Shown in pieces: positions 57,134 through 62,482 of a DNA stretch of 64,000 nt. The notes beneath the pieces were generated by a model, which had not been told where the DNA came from, did no database searches, and saw only the letters and a list, made by a program, of their open reading frames with translations. Made by a program: the position numbers and the translations under genes. The DNA is from Myxococcales bacterium (GTDB lineage: Bacteria; Myxococcota; Myxococcia; Myxococcales; UBA5297). The stretch covers positions 275,272 to 339,271 of the forward strand of contig JASGHK010000008.1 of assembly GCA_049841135.1 (NCBI GenBank), read 5' to 3'. Within the stretch, counting starts at the first letter, position 1; each line of letters opens with the position of its first letter.

Positions 57134-58726
57134 TCATTCCTCCTTCGCGGCACCCTTCTTGGTCTGGATGCCGTACTTGCGCAGCTTGCCCTGGAGCGTC
57201 GTCGGCTGGAGCTTGAGCAGCGCGGCGGCCCCGTCGGTCCCGTAGATCTTTCCGTCGGTCGACGCCAAGGCTTCCTCGAGCAGCGCCTTCACCTGGTCGT
57301 CGTATGGCCGGATGACGTTGCGCGCGGCCATGGCGCTCACCTGCTGCGCCGTCATCCCCACCTGCGGCGCCGCCTCGCCCGCCTTTGCGAGCCCGGTGGG
57401 CAGCGCCAGCTGGTCGCCCGTGCTCATGATGAGCGCCCGCTCGAGGTAGTTCTCCAGCTCGCGCACGTTGCCCGGCCAGCCCGCCGCCTCCAGCGACCGC
57501 CAGACCTCCTCGGCCACGCGCGGCGGGTGCCGGTGCATGCGCGCCGCCTGCCGGCCCAGGAAGTAGGTCGCCAGCGGCCGGATGTCCTCGCGGCGCTCGC
57601 GCAGCGGCGGCACCACCAGAGGGAAGACGTTGAGCCGGTAGAAGAGGTCCTCGCGGAACTTCCCCTCGGACACCATCTTCTCCAGCGGCCGGTTGGTCGC
57701 CGCCACCACCCGCACGTCGACCTTGAAGCTCTCGCCGGCGCCGACGCGCTGCACCTCGCGCTCCTGCAGCACCCGCAGGAGGCGCACCTGCACCGGCAGC
57801 GGCGCGTCGCCGATCTCGTCGAGGAACAGCGTGCCGCCGTGCGCCTGCTCGAACCGGCCGGCGCGCCGCGCCTGGGCTCCGGTGAAGGCGCCCTTCTCGT
57901 GCCCGAACAGCTCGCTCTCGATGAGGCTCTCGGGGATGGCGCCCATGTTCACCACGACGAACGGGCCCGAGAAGCGAGGGCTGAAGTCGTGGATCATCCG
58001 CGCGAGGCCCTCCTTGCCCGTCCCGGTCTCGCCGCGCACCAGCACGGTGCTCTCCGAGCCCGCGACGCGTCGCACCTGCTCGAGCACGCCCTTCATTGCC
58101 GGGCTCTCGGCCACGTAGCGCTCGTCGCGGCGGATCTCGCGCAGCTCCTCGCGCAGCTGGGCGTTCTCCTTGTCCAGCAACCGGTTGAGACGCCGGACCT
58201 CCTCGACCATCAGGCTGTTGTGCAGGGCGATGGCCGCCAGGCGCGCGACCTGATCCGCCGTGCGCAGGCAGCAGGCGAGCAGTCCCTCCTGCGGCGGGTG
58301 GGCGATCTCGAGCGCGCCGATGGGCACGCCTTCGAAGATGAGCGGGAAGGCCACGAGCGACCCGTAGCCGCGCGCCGCCAGGCCGCTCTCCTCCTTGTAT
58401 CGGGGAGCGCTGGGGTTGAGCGGGTCGAGGATCACCCGCTTCCCGCTGGCGACCGCCTCGCCCACCGCCGTGCCGTCCAGCGCGAAGCGAGCCCCCACCT
58501 CCGGTCCGCCCGCGCGCGGGTCGTCGACCCGGAGGATCTCGGCGTGCCCCTTGGCTTCGGTCATCAGCTTGTGGATGGCGACGCGGGTCTCGCCGAAGTG
58601 CCGGCGCAGGAGCCCCGCGGTCCGGTCGAGCACGACCGAAAGCTCGACGGTGGAGAGGACGGCCGTGATGGCCTCCTCGACGATCTTCGCTTCGACCTGC
58701 GCCCCGTGGCAGCCAGTTCCAACCAT
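57134..58726 (-). CDS. Sigma-54-dependent transcriptional activator with N-terminal GAF domain (NorR-like architecture)
   Basis: GAF region at ~20-180. AAA+ sigma54-interaction motifs GETGTGKE, GAFTGA and FLDEIGD. C-terminal Fis-type HTH. Start at MVGTGC. Confidence 0.85.
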   Translation of the reverse strand: MVGTGCHGAQVEAKIVEEAITAVLSTVELSVVLDRTAGLLRRHFGETRVAIHKLMTEAKGHAEILRVDDPRAGGPEVGARFALDGTAVGEAVASGKRVILDPLNPSAPRYKEESGLAARGYGSLVAFPLIFEGVPIGALEIAHPPQEGLLACCLRTADQVARLAAIALHNSLMVEEVRRLNRLLDKENAQLREELREIRRDERYVAESPAMKGVLEQVRRVAGSESTVLVRGETGTGKEGLARMIHDFSPRFSGPFVVVNMGAIPESLIESELFGHEKGAFTGAQARRAGRFEQAHGGTLFLDEIGDAPLPVQVRLLRVLQEREVQRVGAGESFKVDVRVVAATNRPLEKMVSEGKFREDLFYRLNVFPLVVPPLRERREDIRPLATYFLGRQAARMHRHPPRVAEEVWRSLEAAGWPGNVRELENYLERALIMSTGDQLALPTGLAKAGEAAPQVGMTAQQVSAMAARNVIRPYDDQVKALLEEALASTDGKIYGTDGAAALLKLQPTTLQGKLRKYGIQTKKGAAKEE

Positions 58727-58824
58727 GTTTGGTTTCCTACCCAGCTTTCGTTGCCCGTCACAACGTTCTTGGGTGCGCCTTGCTTCCCCCTGCACTCTCT
58801 CCAGCATTTCCGGGCAGTTAGACG

Positions 58825-58842
58825 CTGGCAAGCGAGTTGCTC
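58825..58842 (+). promoter_or_regulatory. Sigma-54 (-24/-12) promoter candidate upstream of the hemerythrin gene
   Basis: cTGGCAAGcgagTTGCTc matches the TGGCAC-N5-TTGCW consensus, with the -12 GC about 41 bp upstream of the ATG at 58881. It lies in the divergent intergenic region next to the sigma54 activator gene. Confidence 0.6.
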
Positions 58843-58880
58843 AAGGACTCCCCGACGACGCAATCGACGAGGAGCAAGAC

Positions 58881-59516
58881 ATGAGCCCGACCCTGAACCC
58901 CCTGGAAACCATGATGGCCGAGCACCGGCAGATCGAGCGCGCGCTCGCGGCGCTGGAGGCCTGCGCCCGGCAGATCGAGGGCGGCGACGACGTGCCTCCG
59001 ACGGCCCTCTCGCTCTTCGTCCGCTTCCTCAAGGGCTACGCGGACGACCTCCACCACGGCAAGGAAGAGGCGCTGCTCTTCGAGAAGATGATCGACGCGG
59101 GGTTCCCGCGCGAAGCCGGCCCGGTGGCGATGATGCGCCTCGAGCACGAGCGCGGCCGCGCGCTGGTCCGCGAGCTCAAGGCGCTGGGCGAGAAGGACGC
59201 GTTCTCGCCGGTCGACCGTCGCCGGGTCGTGGAGGTCAGCTTCCAGTTCGCGGCGCTCCTGCGGGCCCACATCCAGAAGGAGGACCGCATCCTCTACCCC
59301 ATGGCCGAGCAGCGGATGCCGCCCGAGTCGATGGAGAAGCTCGCTGAGGAGTGCCGCGCCCACCTCGCCCAGCACGCGCAGGCCGAGGCCGACCTCGTCG
59401 CGCTGGCCGTTTCGCTCGAGCAGCAGTTCATCGACCGGGGCCGAGTGCCGGCCGCCCCCGCCCAAGACCACCACCACCGCGCCGTCTGCCCCCTGTGCGG
59501 CGGCCACGCGAAGTAA
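58881..59516 (+). CDS. Hemerythrin-like (HHE cation-binding) domain protein
   Basis: His/Glu pairs HHGKEEALLFEKM, LEHERGRAL and HIQKEDRILYP. 211 aa with a C-terminal Cys pair CPLCGGH. Confidence 0.7.
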   Translation: MSPTLNPLETMMAEHRQIERALAALEACARQIEGGDDVPPTALSLFVRFLKGYADDLHHGKEEALLFEKMIDAGFPREAGPVAMMRLEHERGRALVRELKALGEKDAFSPVDRRRVVEVSFQFAALLRAHIQKEDRILYPMAEQRMPPESMEKLAEECRAHLAQHAQAEADLVALAVSLEQQFIDRGRVPAAPAQDHHHRAVCPLCGGHAK

Positions 59517-59532
59517 CGGAGGAACGCACGTC

Positions 59533-60992: not shown

Positions 60993-61003
60993 TTCCAACC
61001 CGT

Positions 61004-61114
61004 GCCGGCCCGATGGCCGGCGATCCAGGCCGGCGGGATGGCCGGCGATTCACCGCTTGCCGGCCCGGTAGCCGGCGATCCAAAACCCAGGCCGGCCGGA
61101 TGGCCGGCGATGCC
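61004..61114. repeat. Four tandem ~27-bp repeats GCCGGC-N3-4-(G/A)T(G/A)GCCGGCGAT in the intergenic region upstream of the cupin gene
   Basis: gccggcccgatggccggcgatcc / ggccggcgggatggccggcgattc / gccggcccggtagccggcgatcc / ggccggccggatggccggcgatgcc. Confidence 0.65.
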
Positions 61115-61127
61115 AGAGAGGCACACC

Positions 61128-61469
61128 ATGCCGATGACCAAAGTCGAGTCCAAGTTCCCCGGCGCCCAGGCCCAGTCCATCGCCGATCTCGTGCAGTACG
61201 CGGAAGGCGCCATCGTCAGCCGCGCGCTGGTGCAGAAGAGCGTCGGCTCGCTGACCCTGTTCGCCTTCGACGCCGGGCAGGAGCTCTCCGAGCACAGCGC
61301 CCCCTTCGACGCCTTCGTCCAGGTCCTCGACGGCGAGGCGGAGCTGGTCATCGGCGGCAAGTCGGTGCCCGCCAAGGCCGGCCAGCTGGTGCTGATGCCC
61401 GCCAACGTCCCGCACGCCGTCAAGGCGCCGCAGCGCTTCAAGATGCTGCTCTCGATGATCCGGGGCTGA
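61128..61469 (+). CDS. Cupin-domain protein
   Basis: Cupin_2 fold: ...LTLFAFDAGQELSEHSAPFDAFVQVLDGEAELVIGGK...AGQLVLMPANVPHAVKA. Start at the ATG preceded by gagagg. Confidence 0.65.
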   Translation: MPMTKVESKFPGAQAQSIADLVQYAEGAIVSRALVQKSVGSLTLFAFDAGQELSEHSAPFDAFVQVLDGEAELVIGGKSVPAKAGQLVLMPANVPHAVKAPQRFKMLLSMIRG

Positions 61470-61474
61470 CCCGC

Positions 61475-62482
61475 TTGATCTCGCTCGCCGCCAAGGCCCC
61501 GGCTGCGCCGGCCTCCCCGTGGCTCCCGCGCACCGTCGCGGGAGCCCTCACCTTCGTGCTGCTCTCGACCATCCAGCTCAAGGTCGCCCGTCCGATGATC
61601 CTGGCGGAGCGGTTCCTTCCGGGCGCGGGCTGGGTCGAGGCGGCCCTGCTCGCGGCGTATTCGGGCTGGCTCGCGGGCACCCTGGTGACGGCACGGCGCA
61701 CCGGCCCGTGGCGGCGCAAGCTGTGGACGCTCTTCTCCCTCGTCTTCTTCTCGCAGCTGGCGCTCGGGCTGGCCGGGTTCGAGAGGTTCCTGATGAGCGG
61801 CAAGCTGCACCTGCCCATCCCGGCCATGTTCGTGGCCGGTCCGCTCTACCGGGGTGAGGGGCTGTTCATGCCCATCCTCTTCCTGGTCACCGTGCTGATC
61901 GTCGGCCCGGGCTGGTGCAGCTTCCTCTGCTACATCGGCTCCTGGGACTTCAACGCCTCGCTCAGCCAGCGCAAGGCGCGCGAGCTGCCGAAGTGGCGCC
62001 ACGCCGCCCGCCTGGCGATCTTCGCGCTGGTCGTCGGGGCGGCCCTCGCCTTGCGCGCCTGGGGCGCCCCCAGCTCGGTGGCCGCGCTGTTCGGCCTGGC
62101 GTTCGGGCTGGGTGGCGTGGCGGTGATGGTCCTCGCCTCGCGGCGCCTGGGCTCGATGGCCCACTGCGTGATCTGGTGCCCCATCGGCCTGCTCGCCACC
62201 ACGCTGGGCCGGCTCTCACCCTTCCGCCTGCGCATCCAATCCTCGTGCGAAGGCTGCAACGCCTGCGGCCCGAGCTGCCGCTACGACGCGCTCCAGCCCA
62301 TCCACATCTCGCGGCGCAAGGTGGGCCTGTCGTGCACCTTGTGCGGCGACTGCCTCTCGTCCTGCGGGCGCCGGTCGCTCACCTACGGCTTCCCCGGCCT
62401 CTCGGCGACCGCGGCGCGCACCGCCTACTTCGTGCTTGTCGCCTCGCTGCACGCCGTCTTCCTGGGCGTCGCGCGGATCTAG
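61475..62482 (+). CDS. Polytopic membrane protein with two 4Fe-4S ferredoxin-type Cys clusters (start uncertain; TTG 61475 or ATG ~61594)
   Basis: About 6 TM segments, then CEGCNACGPSCRYDAL and CTLCGDCLSSC. Confidence 0.55.
   Translation: MISLAAKAPAAPASPWLPRTVAGALTFVLLSTIQLKVARPMILAERFLPGAGWVEAALLAAYSGWLAGTLVTARRTGPWRRKLWTLFSLVFFSQLALGLAGFERFLMSGKLHLPIPAMFVAGPLYRGEGLFMPILFLVTVLIVGPGWCSFLCYIGSWDFNASLSQRKARELPKWRHAARLAIFALVVGAALALRAWGAPSSVAALFGLAFGLGGVAVMVLASRRLGSMAHCVIWCPIGLLATTLGRLSPFRLRIQSSCEGCNACGPSCRYDALQPIHISRRKVGLSCTLCGDCLSSCGRRSLTYGFPGLSATAARTAYFVLVASLHAVFLGVARI

Follow-up and report, generated by a model that had tools for sequence, protein, structure and literature searches.

A putative nitrosative-stress operon of Myxococcota under a sigma-54 activator distinct from NorR

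Introduction

NorR is the textbook sigma-54-dependent sensor of nitric oxide (NO), and a sigma-54 enhancer-binding protein (EBP) transcribed divergently from NO-detoxification genes is already known as a kind of system. Here we analyse a locus that resembles this arrangement, found in a 64-kb stretch of contig JASGHK010000008.1 from a Myxococcales bacterium (the window, with a GC content of 71%). An EBP gene on the minus strand stands divergent from plus-strand genes for a hemerythrin-like protein (Hr1), a DUF1858-DUF438-Hemerythrin-PAS_10 protein (gene 2), a cupin and a NapH-like membrane protein. Judging from sequence comparison, we put at roughly 60% the probability that the locus is a sigma-54 nitrosative-stress operon akin to NorR-norAB and norVW, run by a different EBP that is restricted to Myxococcota.

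Two described activators are particularly close. In NorR, substitutions at R75, Y98, D99, H111 and C113 disrupt the iron centre (PMC2941729), and in Ralstonia eutropha the di-iron protein NorA/RIC is a NorR target (PMC9268430, PMC1274295). The GAF-type EBP PexR of Myxococcus xanthus detects H2O2 at a metal site in its GAF domain, a Zn/Fe site formed by H102, H120, C122 and D140. Its binding sites are three dyad repeats ahead of sigma-54 promoters, its targets are ahpC, katB and ccp, and its homologues adjoin ahpC, katB, ccp or rbr (PMC12754779).

Results and discussion

Comparison with NorR regulons

The locus shares several features with the NorR regulons, namely norR-norVW of E. coli and norR-norAB of R. 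eutropha. These are a divergent activator with the domain order GAF-AAA+-helix-turn-helix (HTH), a sigma-54 promoter, enhancer sites (here putative) about 60–100 bp upstream, and a first target gene encoding a di-iron protein of RIC/NorA type. In sister lineages the cargo includes the NO reductase qNorB, and in one locus, L092, orthologues of the DUF438 protein and the cupin stand under NorR itself. The differences are equally clear. The GAF domain of the window EBP lacks equivalents of R75, Y98, H111, C113 and D131 (the last also belonging to the iron site of NorR) and has a conservative Glu in place of D99, while the divergent spacer contains an interrupted palindrome instead of GT-N7-AC boxes. 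NorR has been described in a limited range of beta- and gamma-proteobacteria (PMC1274295), whereas the window EBP family is confined to Myxococcota-like lineages.

The first-pass annotation, made from the sequence of the window, had recognised a divergent sigma-54 promoter module with a GAF activator, and both the genes and the promoter are confirmed by Pfam and by a motif scan. It had also proposed a four-gene operon. The gene contents were found by Pfam as described, but the domain order given for gene 2 was wrong, its PAS_10 domain had been missed, and the cupin start differs.

Gene neighbourhoods and a probable connection with nitric oxide

Loci were collected by scanning one genome per species with an alignment of Hr1 homologues and, in addition, by exact look-ups, and EBP orthologues were located by tblastn. 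The fetched loci are cited here by L numbers. Genes in loci of 70–75% GC were called with guidance from the third codon position (GC3) together with tblastn, as picking the longest open reading frame (ORF) mostly selected the wrong strand. By tblastn, nine distinct loci besides the window have an EBP orthologue divergent from Hr1. The divergent EBP-Hr1 loci listed are L001, L003 (of which L004 is a near-identical contig), L006, L009, L011, L012, L013, L088, L090 and L091. L034 holds both genes in another arrangement, with qNorB directly upstream of Hr1. The EBP orthologues are 56–90% identical to the window protein over the full length, and 50–90% identical in the GAF domain.

The genes that accompany this unit vary. 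In Anaeromyxobacter lineages (L006, L011 and L088) Hr1 is followed by a qNorB that has NorB_cytochrome_c-like and COX1 domains, and in L006 and L011 a second hemerythrin comes after qNorB. In the window, L001, L090 and L091 the cargo is instead the DUF438 protein and the cupin. We also observed an uncalled 2.1-kb gap (5865-8001) upstream of Hr1-qNorB in L006, which comes from the Anaeromyxobacteraceae metagenome-assembled genome (MAG) GCA_047602405.1. Inside the gap lies an EBP orthologue disrupted by a frameshift, a further example of a broken gene among the MAGs of this group.

The link to NO comes in part from L092, where (positions 4752-11102) NorR is divergent from a hemerythrin, a DUF1858-DUF438-Hr-PAS_10 protein, qNorB and a cupin. 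Identity between the L092 NorR and that of E. coli is 48% for the whole protein and 37% for the GAF domain. The L092 protein keeps R75, D96, D99, H111, C113 and D131, with Phe at Y98, and its spacer contains three GT-N7-AC boxes with E. coli-like spacing, together with a sigma-54 promoter. The DUF438 protein of this operon is 50% identical to gene 2 and its cupin is 64% identical to the window cupin, so the odd genes of the window belong to a true NorR regulon elsewhere. L092 adds two uncharacterised families to the NorR regulon.

Further evidence was obtained by clustering the ORFs within 5 kb of Hr1 homologues over 85 loci (the window and 84 others). These neighbours include qNorB (8 of the 85 loci), a NarG-like molybdopterin oxidoreductase (5), Crp/Fnr regulators (4), cupins (5) and DUF438 proteins (4). 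Regulators of the Rrf2 family (NsrR-type) are found beside Hr1 homologues in 8/85 loci, three of them together with qNorB, and a separate tblastn search located a NorV-like flavodiiron protein in one Hr1-homologue locus. The first-pass annotation had suggested an NO or O2 detoxification and repair module. The comparative genomics, in the form of the EBP-Hr1-qNorB loci, the NorR-run operon of L092 and the neighbours of Hr1, supports a response to NO; the NorR-like sensor that went with the proposal is not supported.

The sigma-54 promoter and a putative enhancer

The spacer between EBP and Hr1 (58727-58880) is 154 bp long. It contains the sigma-54 element CTGGCAAGCGAGTTGCT at 58825-58841, with the GG at 58827-28 and the GC at 58839-40. 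The -24/-12 element itself, TGGCAAGCGAGTTGC (GG-N10-GC), is on the plus strand at 58826..58840. The pattern TGGCA-N6-TTGC occurs once in the window when both strands are counted, against 0.35 occurrences expected, and GG-N10-GC is present at the equivalent position in 11/11 orthologous spacers. On both counts, the near-consensus sigma-54 promoter that had been noted upstream of the hemerythrin gene stands. A ribosome-binding site, GAGGAG, is found 6 nt upstream of the Hr1 ATG at 58881. Scans over 56.5-63 kb for Rfam families, sigma-70 promoters and terminators gave nothing useful.

Further upstream, at 58739..58774, there is a 36-bp interrupted palindrome, ACCCA-GCTT-TCGTTG-CCCGTCA-CAACG-TTCT-TGGGT, whose inner part is the perfect palindrome CGTTG-N7-CAACG. 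Its centre is approximately 70 bp upstream of the -24 GG. The position of this block is conserved in 11 orthologous spacers, which when anchored on the -24 element share (T/C)ACCCA-N3-5-TCGGTGC-N5-7-GCAACG-N4-5-TTGGGTGC at -85 to -48 from the GG. From this conservation we infer that the block is a putative enhancer (upstream activating sequence, UAS) of the EBP. The UAS overlaps the EBP's own promoter region, its edge being 13 bp from the EBP start codon, and autoregulation is therefore plausible. A possible third upstream repeat near 58728-58737 was rejected for the poor fit of its sequence and of its 18-bp spacing.

The first-pass annotation had advised a search of this region for three NorR-type boxes. 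No GT-N7-AC box is present in 58727-58880, while the script applied here detects three in the norR-norV spacer of E. coli and three in that of L092.

The enhancer-binding protein

The EBP (57134..58726, minus strand, 530 aa) is predicted by Pfam to contain a GAF domain (residues 29-168), a Sigma54_activat domain (E 2.4e-71) and AAA_lid_14, followed by a C-terminal Fis-type HTH whose HTH_8 score of 21.1 bits is just below the cut-off of 22. The translation carries the Walker A sequence GETGTGKE, and GAFTGA. Pfam thus agrees with the earlier observation that the protein has the GAF-AAA+-HTH order of NorR.

The likeness to NorR does not extend to the details. The top NCBIfam matches of the EBP are the NifA and NorR models, and neither reaches its cut-off. 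On the NorR equivalog NF003451 the protein reaches 348.8 bits, where 476 are required, and the match is limited to residues 126-512, which leaves most of the GAF domain uncovered, while the NifA model scores higher (375 bits) and is still under its own cut-off. The NorR residues R75, Y98, D99, H111, C113 and D131 align to V, K, E, G, L and A/gap in the window EBP, and similar residues are found at these positions in every EBP orthologue. The description of the activator as NorR-like consequently fails on three points, which are the missing iron ligands, the score below cut-off and the lack of NorR boxes. A GAF domain that lacks the conserved metal ligands is not compatible with a strict assignment to NorR, and on the sequence evidence the window EBP is not NorR.

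To estimate the size of the EBP GAF family, an exhaustive profile search was carried out against 1.84 billion cluster representatives. It gave 28 hits at E <= 1e-30, with about 15 clusters (at 50% identity) of EBP-type GAF before the scores fall to generic or multi-GAF proteins. A word-indexed search with the GAF domain gave 23 proteins, mainly fragments, and was not used for family size. By this profile measure the family is small, and its named sources are all Myxococcota-like MAGs or Anaeromyxobacter.

Within the family, residues Y121, G122, F127, P128, L129, E132, G137, A142, H143 and P145 of the GAF domain are invariant. C153 and E113 are kept in at least 90% of the sequences, and C152 in nearly all. 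AlphaFold models the domain with a pLDDT of 84 and a standard GAF fold, in which H143 is at the end of the last strand and C152-C153 are at the start of the long C-terminal helix that runs toward the AAA+ domain. The invariant His and the Cys-Cys pair are thus located where the GAF domain meets the signalling helix. A Foldseek search of the model against the PDB returned generic GAF domains (Lcd1, Nlh2 and 3k2n, at 13-19% identity), and gave no clue to a ligand. A more ambitious proposal, which we regard as rather unlikely, is that the EBP represents a new class of gas/redox GAF sensor. His143 and Cys152-Cys153 would form an inter-subunit metal, iron-sulfur (Fe-S) or thiol NO switch in the dimer, and the DUF1858-DUF438-hemerythrin-PAS_10 proteins, which are widespread orphans, and the small cupin would be dedicated accessory factors of qNorB.

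It is also worth comparing the EBP with PexR. Both are myxobacterial GAF-type EBPs that are encoded divergently from their targets, and in both the sigma-54 promoter is preceded by dyad repeats; autoinhibition through the GAF domain, a property of PexR, is presumed for the EBP too. The module could on this basis answer O2, peroxide or general redox stress, with the EBP sensing oxidants in the way PexR does and the hemerythrins shielding or repairing Fe-S enzymes against oxidative damage. PexR is itself a precedent, being a GAF-type EBP that senses H2O2 in M. xanthus (PMC12754779). O2 sensors and protectors against oxidative damage are described among the bacterial hemerythrins, and the invariant His and Cys-Cys pair of the EBP family would suit a thiol switch. 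However, the ligand pattern of PexR has no visible counterpart in the EBP. When positions are placed via NorR, the matching strand is YGSLVAFPL, which has no His or Cys and therefore no His-x-Cys, and the equivalent of D140 is an Ala next to the invariant H143. The genes differ as well. The PexR targets are ahpC, katB and ccp, whereas neither these nor rbr were found in the window and the orthologous loci; in the loci examined the EBP family adjoins qNorB, DUF438 and cupin genes instead, and the neighbours of the Hr1 family are nitrogen-oxide enzymes and NsrR-type regulators. An oxidant sensor seems unlikely to us.

Hr1 is a distant relative of RIC

Hr1 (58881..59516, plus strand, 211 aa) is predicted to be a single-domain hemerythrin-like di-iron protein (Pfam Hemerythrin, E 1e-21). 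It is 100% identical to P0001, a protein of a Myxococcales MAG. The residues that are invariant in the alignment of homologues include H15, E19, H58, H59, E62, E63, H89, H130, E134 and D135. When the family profile was run against PDB sequences the sole convincing match was YtfE/RIC (E 2e-11), in an alignment that spans the di-iron ligand motifs HxxKEE, GPxxVMxxEH and HIxxE(D/N)xxLYP. The scores on the NCBIfam equivalogs are 32.1 bits for YtfE (cut-off 254), 30.1 for RIC (cut-off 204.7) and 25.1 for DnrN (cut-off 300). The ScdA_N domain, which carries a CC motif, was not found in Hr1 by Pfam; some RICs also lack it, for example that of N. gonorrhoeae (PMC9268430).

By these criteria, Hr1 is a distant relative of RIC/YtfE. 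It has in common with the RIC/YtfE/ScdA/DnrN/NorA proteins a hemerythrin-like four-helix di-iron domain with aligned motifs, and a genomic tie to NO regulators and NO reductases. It differs from them in having no ScdA_N, in scoring 25-32 bits against cut-offs of 205-300, and in a C-terminal extension ending in CxxCGGH. In the window this tail is CPLCGGH (within 59480-59516). The closest relatives of Hr1 end in C-x2-CGG(H) and many remoter homologues in GCGG, a motif that recalls the CC-G motif of the RIC N-terminal domain.

Hr1 could itself be the sensor. It would then bind NO (or O2) and control the EBP as a partner protein, as in NifL-NifA or PspA-PspF, leaving the GAF domain as a docking or auxiliary input, or else it would buffer free NO in the manner of NorA. 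In R. eutropha NorA is said, in 2007 work of Strube et al., to modulate the output of NorR by lowering free NO. In agreement with such a role, Hr1 is the sole constant companion of the EBP, while the cargo varies (qNorB, DUF438 protein with cupin, or none), and the GAF domain has no known gas-binding ligand set and matches only generic folds. A constant first gene is, however, equally expected of a simple effector, and Hr1 homologues are widespread without the EBP, under Rrf2 or Crp/Fnr regulators. We consider it improbable that Hr1 is the sensor.

Gene 2 and its frameshifts

Gene 2 (59533..60992, plus strand) would encode a protein of about 486 aa if repaired. The first-pass annotation gave its domain order as DUF1858-Hr-DUF438; the order found by Pfam is DUF1858-DUF438-Hemerythrin-PAS_10, the PAS_10 domain having an E value of 1.4e-31. 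The gene spans three frames, with DUF1858 in frame 1, 23 codons of DUF438 in frame 2 and the remainder in frame 0. DNA alignment with two relatives locates two extra bases, GAGCTC[G]AAGGGC near 59875 and GAGCTG[C]ATCGCC at 59945, neither of them in a long homopolymer. Once both are removed, the gene reads through as a 485-aa protein with 88% identity to P0144, an intact 488-aa protein of a related MAG. Intact orthologues are present in L001, L090, L091 and L092, and the relatives are 484-488 aa long. The gene calls published for the source MAG include no more than a 318-aa fragment of gene 2 (P0148), and the frameshifts are therefore present in the deposited assembly.

The neighbouring gene, for an RsmB/RsmF-like methyltransferase (window 55900-57112), is likewise spread across at least two, and probably three, frames. 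The pieces matched by tblastn are at 56230-56646 (frame 1) and 56645-57103 (frame 2), with the N-terminal part in another ORF. In L001 the gene is intact and encodes 364 aa, which suggests that the split arose from assembly indel errors. Because this neighbour is also split, and the contig is 1.65 Mb long, we lean towards reading the frameshifts of gene 2 as assembly indels rather than as a real pseudogene.

If gene 2 were instead a true pseudogene, the locus could be a decaying remnant, which has lost qNorB and whose other parts may not work. The two insertions in gene 2 do not compensate for each other and lie outside long homopolymers, there is no qNorB in the window, and a repeat-rich spacer of 135 nt appears to have been inserted ahead of the cupin gene. 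However, the split in a housekeeping neighbour and the long contig point to the assembly. The four remaining ORFs of the module (EBP, Hr1, cupin and NapH-like) are intact, as are promoter and enhancer, with 80-93% identity to their L001 counterparts, and L090 and L091 have no qNorB either, yet their genes are intact. Local decay is in our view very unlikely. All three rivals considered here, which are an oxidant sensor, Hr1 as the sensor and local decay, rank below a nitrosative-stress operon.

Over 3000 homologues of gene 2 were found. The relatives with solved structures are the uncharacterised proteins PF0695 (3cax) and 2qkp. Repaired gene 2 matches PF0695 of Pyrococcus furiosus (PDB 3cax) at E 1e-57 with the same four-domain architecture, but differs from such proteins in that it sits in an operon apparently controlled by an EBP, as it does also in L001, L090, L091 and L092. 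No functional role for DUF438 or DUF1858 was found in the literature searched. DrpB of Thermus was examined as a functional lead and rejected, having only DUF1858 in common with gene 2.

The cupin, its upstream spacer and the NapH-like protein

The region between gene 2 and the cupin gene is 135 nt long in the window and 34 nt in L001. It contains a repeat-rich stretch (61012..61111) with three exact copies of GATGGCCGGCGAT and one variant, compared with 0.2 matches expected, and the sequence has no match elsewhere in the window. The spacer folds strongly as RNA (z -2.67). It looks like a small repeat insertion.

The cupin gene (61128..61469, plus strand) encodes a Cupin_2 protein of 113 aa, identified by Pfam and by its orthologues. 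It most likely starts at the ATG at 61128, as in its relatives, and not at 61002. Orthologues with 64-93% identity come after gene 2 in L001, L090 and L091, and after qNorB in L092. Cupin homologues are also found beside Hr1 homologues in L010, L023 and L083.

The last gene (61475..62482, plus strand), which probably starts at the TTG at 61475, encodes a NapH/MauN-like polytopic membrane protein of 335 aa, with weak matches to Fer4_5 and Fer4_9. Its motifs are CSFLCY, CVIWCP, CEGCNACGPSC and CTLCGDCLSSC; the latter two are CxxCxxCxxxC sequences, so the translation bears out the membrane protein with two 4Fe-4S motifs that had been noted earlier. It has in common with ferredoxins of the NapH/MauN/NosR type that it is polytopic and has two CX3C(P) and two C-terminal 4Fe-4S motifs. 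It differs in being a distant match, with 44 bits on the NCBIfam NapH/MauN model TIGR02163 against a cut-off of 213, and in having no Nap, Mau or Nos partner genes. Among the fetched loci the protein is found only in the window and L001. It is a speculation, based on its motifs, that it feeds electrons from quinol to the di-iron proteins.

Proposed mechanism

On the basis of these observations, we hypothesise that the EBP binds to the conserved palindrome centred some 70 bp ahead of the -24 element, and that its GAF domain keeps the AAA+ ATPase off until a signal arrives. The signal would most likely be NO, or NO-derived damage at a bound metal or thiol site. A hexamer of the EBP would then remodel sigma-54 RNA polymerase at TGGCAAGCGAGTTGC, and transcription would run through the genes for Hr1, the DUF1858-DUF438-hemerythrin-PAS_10 protein, the cupin and the NapH-like, presumably quinol-linked, Fe-S membrane protein, which we thus take to be co-transcribed. 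Hr1, as a di-iron protein like RIC or NorA, may bind NO or repair iron centres. In sister lineages the same unit of regulator, promoter and Hr1 carries qNorB, which is missing from the window version.

Several points weigh against this hypothesis. Hemerythrin and RIC proteins respond to O2 and H2O2 too. As the GAF domain of the EBP is without the iron ligands of NorR, no NO-binding site can be named in it. Neither qNorB nor any other NO reductase was found in the window. In four loci (L003, L009, L012 and L013) Hr1 is apparently the only cargo, and in three distant phyla DUF438 homologues stand alone, with no nitrogen-oxide context. Finally, gene 2 is frameshifted in the window, so that part of the module may no longer work here.

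The literature searched describes neither this EBP subtype nor its enhancer, and does not place DUF438 and cupin genes in operons of this kind. Members of the Myxococcota, including cultured Anaeromyxobacter (sp. PSR-1 and A. dehalogenans carry EBP-Hr1-qNorB), which are common soil bacteria, appear to have put NorR-type cargo under a different GAF activator, the cargo being a RIC-like di-iron protein, qNorB, the DUF438 protein and the cupin. DUF438 and cupin genes share an operon with NO-response genes in five loci, one of them under a genuine NorR, and this provides the large DUF438/PF0695 family, along with its cupin partner, with a first functional lead that is open to testing. Biosensor design could also make use of a new switch that responds to NO.

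Neighbouring genes

Downstream of the operon, at 62560-63954, there is a gene for a Ser/Thr protein kinase. It is in the same place in L001 (80% identity), and is not kept beside the module in L090 to L092. On the other side, L001 has a gene for an HD-domain protein of 307 aa (L001 5302-6225) between the RsmB-like and EBP genes. This gene is absent from the window, where the RsmB-like and EBP genes nearly adjoin (57112-57134). Further away, an 875-aa ORF on the minus strand (51582-54209) resembles an outer-membrane efflux protein running into an HlyD/CzcB-like lipoprotein. The two halves are joined by a low-complexity stretch, and the ORF may be another frameshift or fusion artefact.

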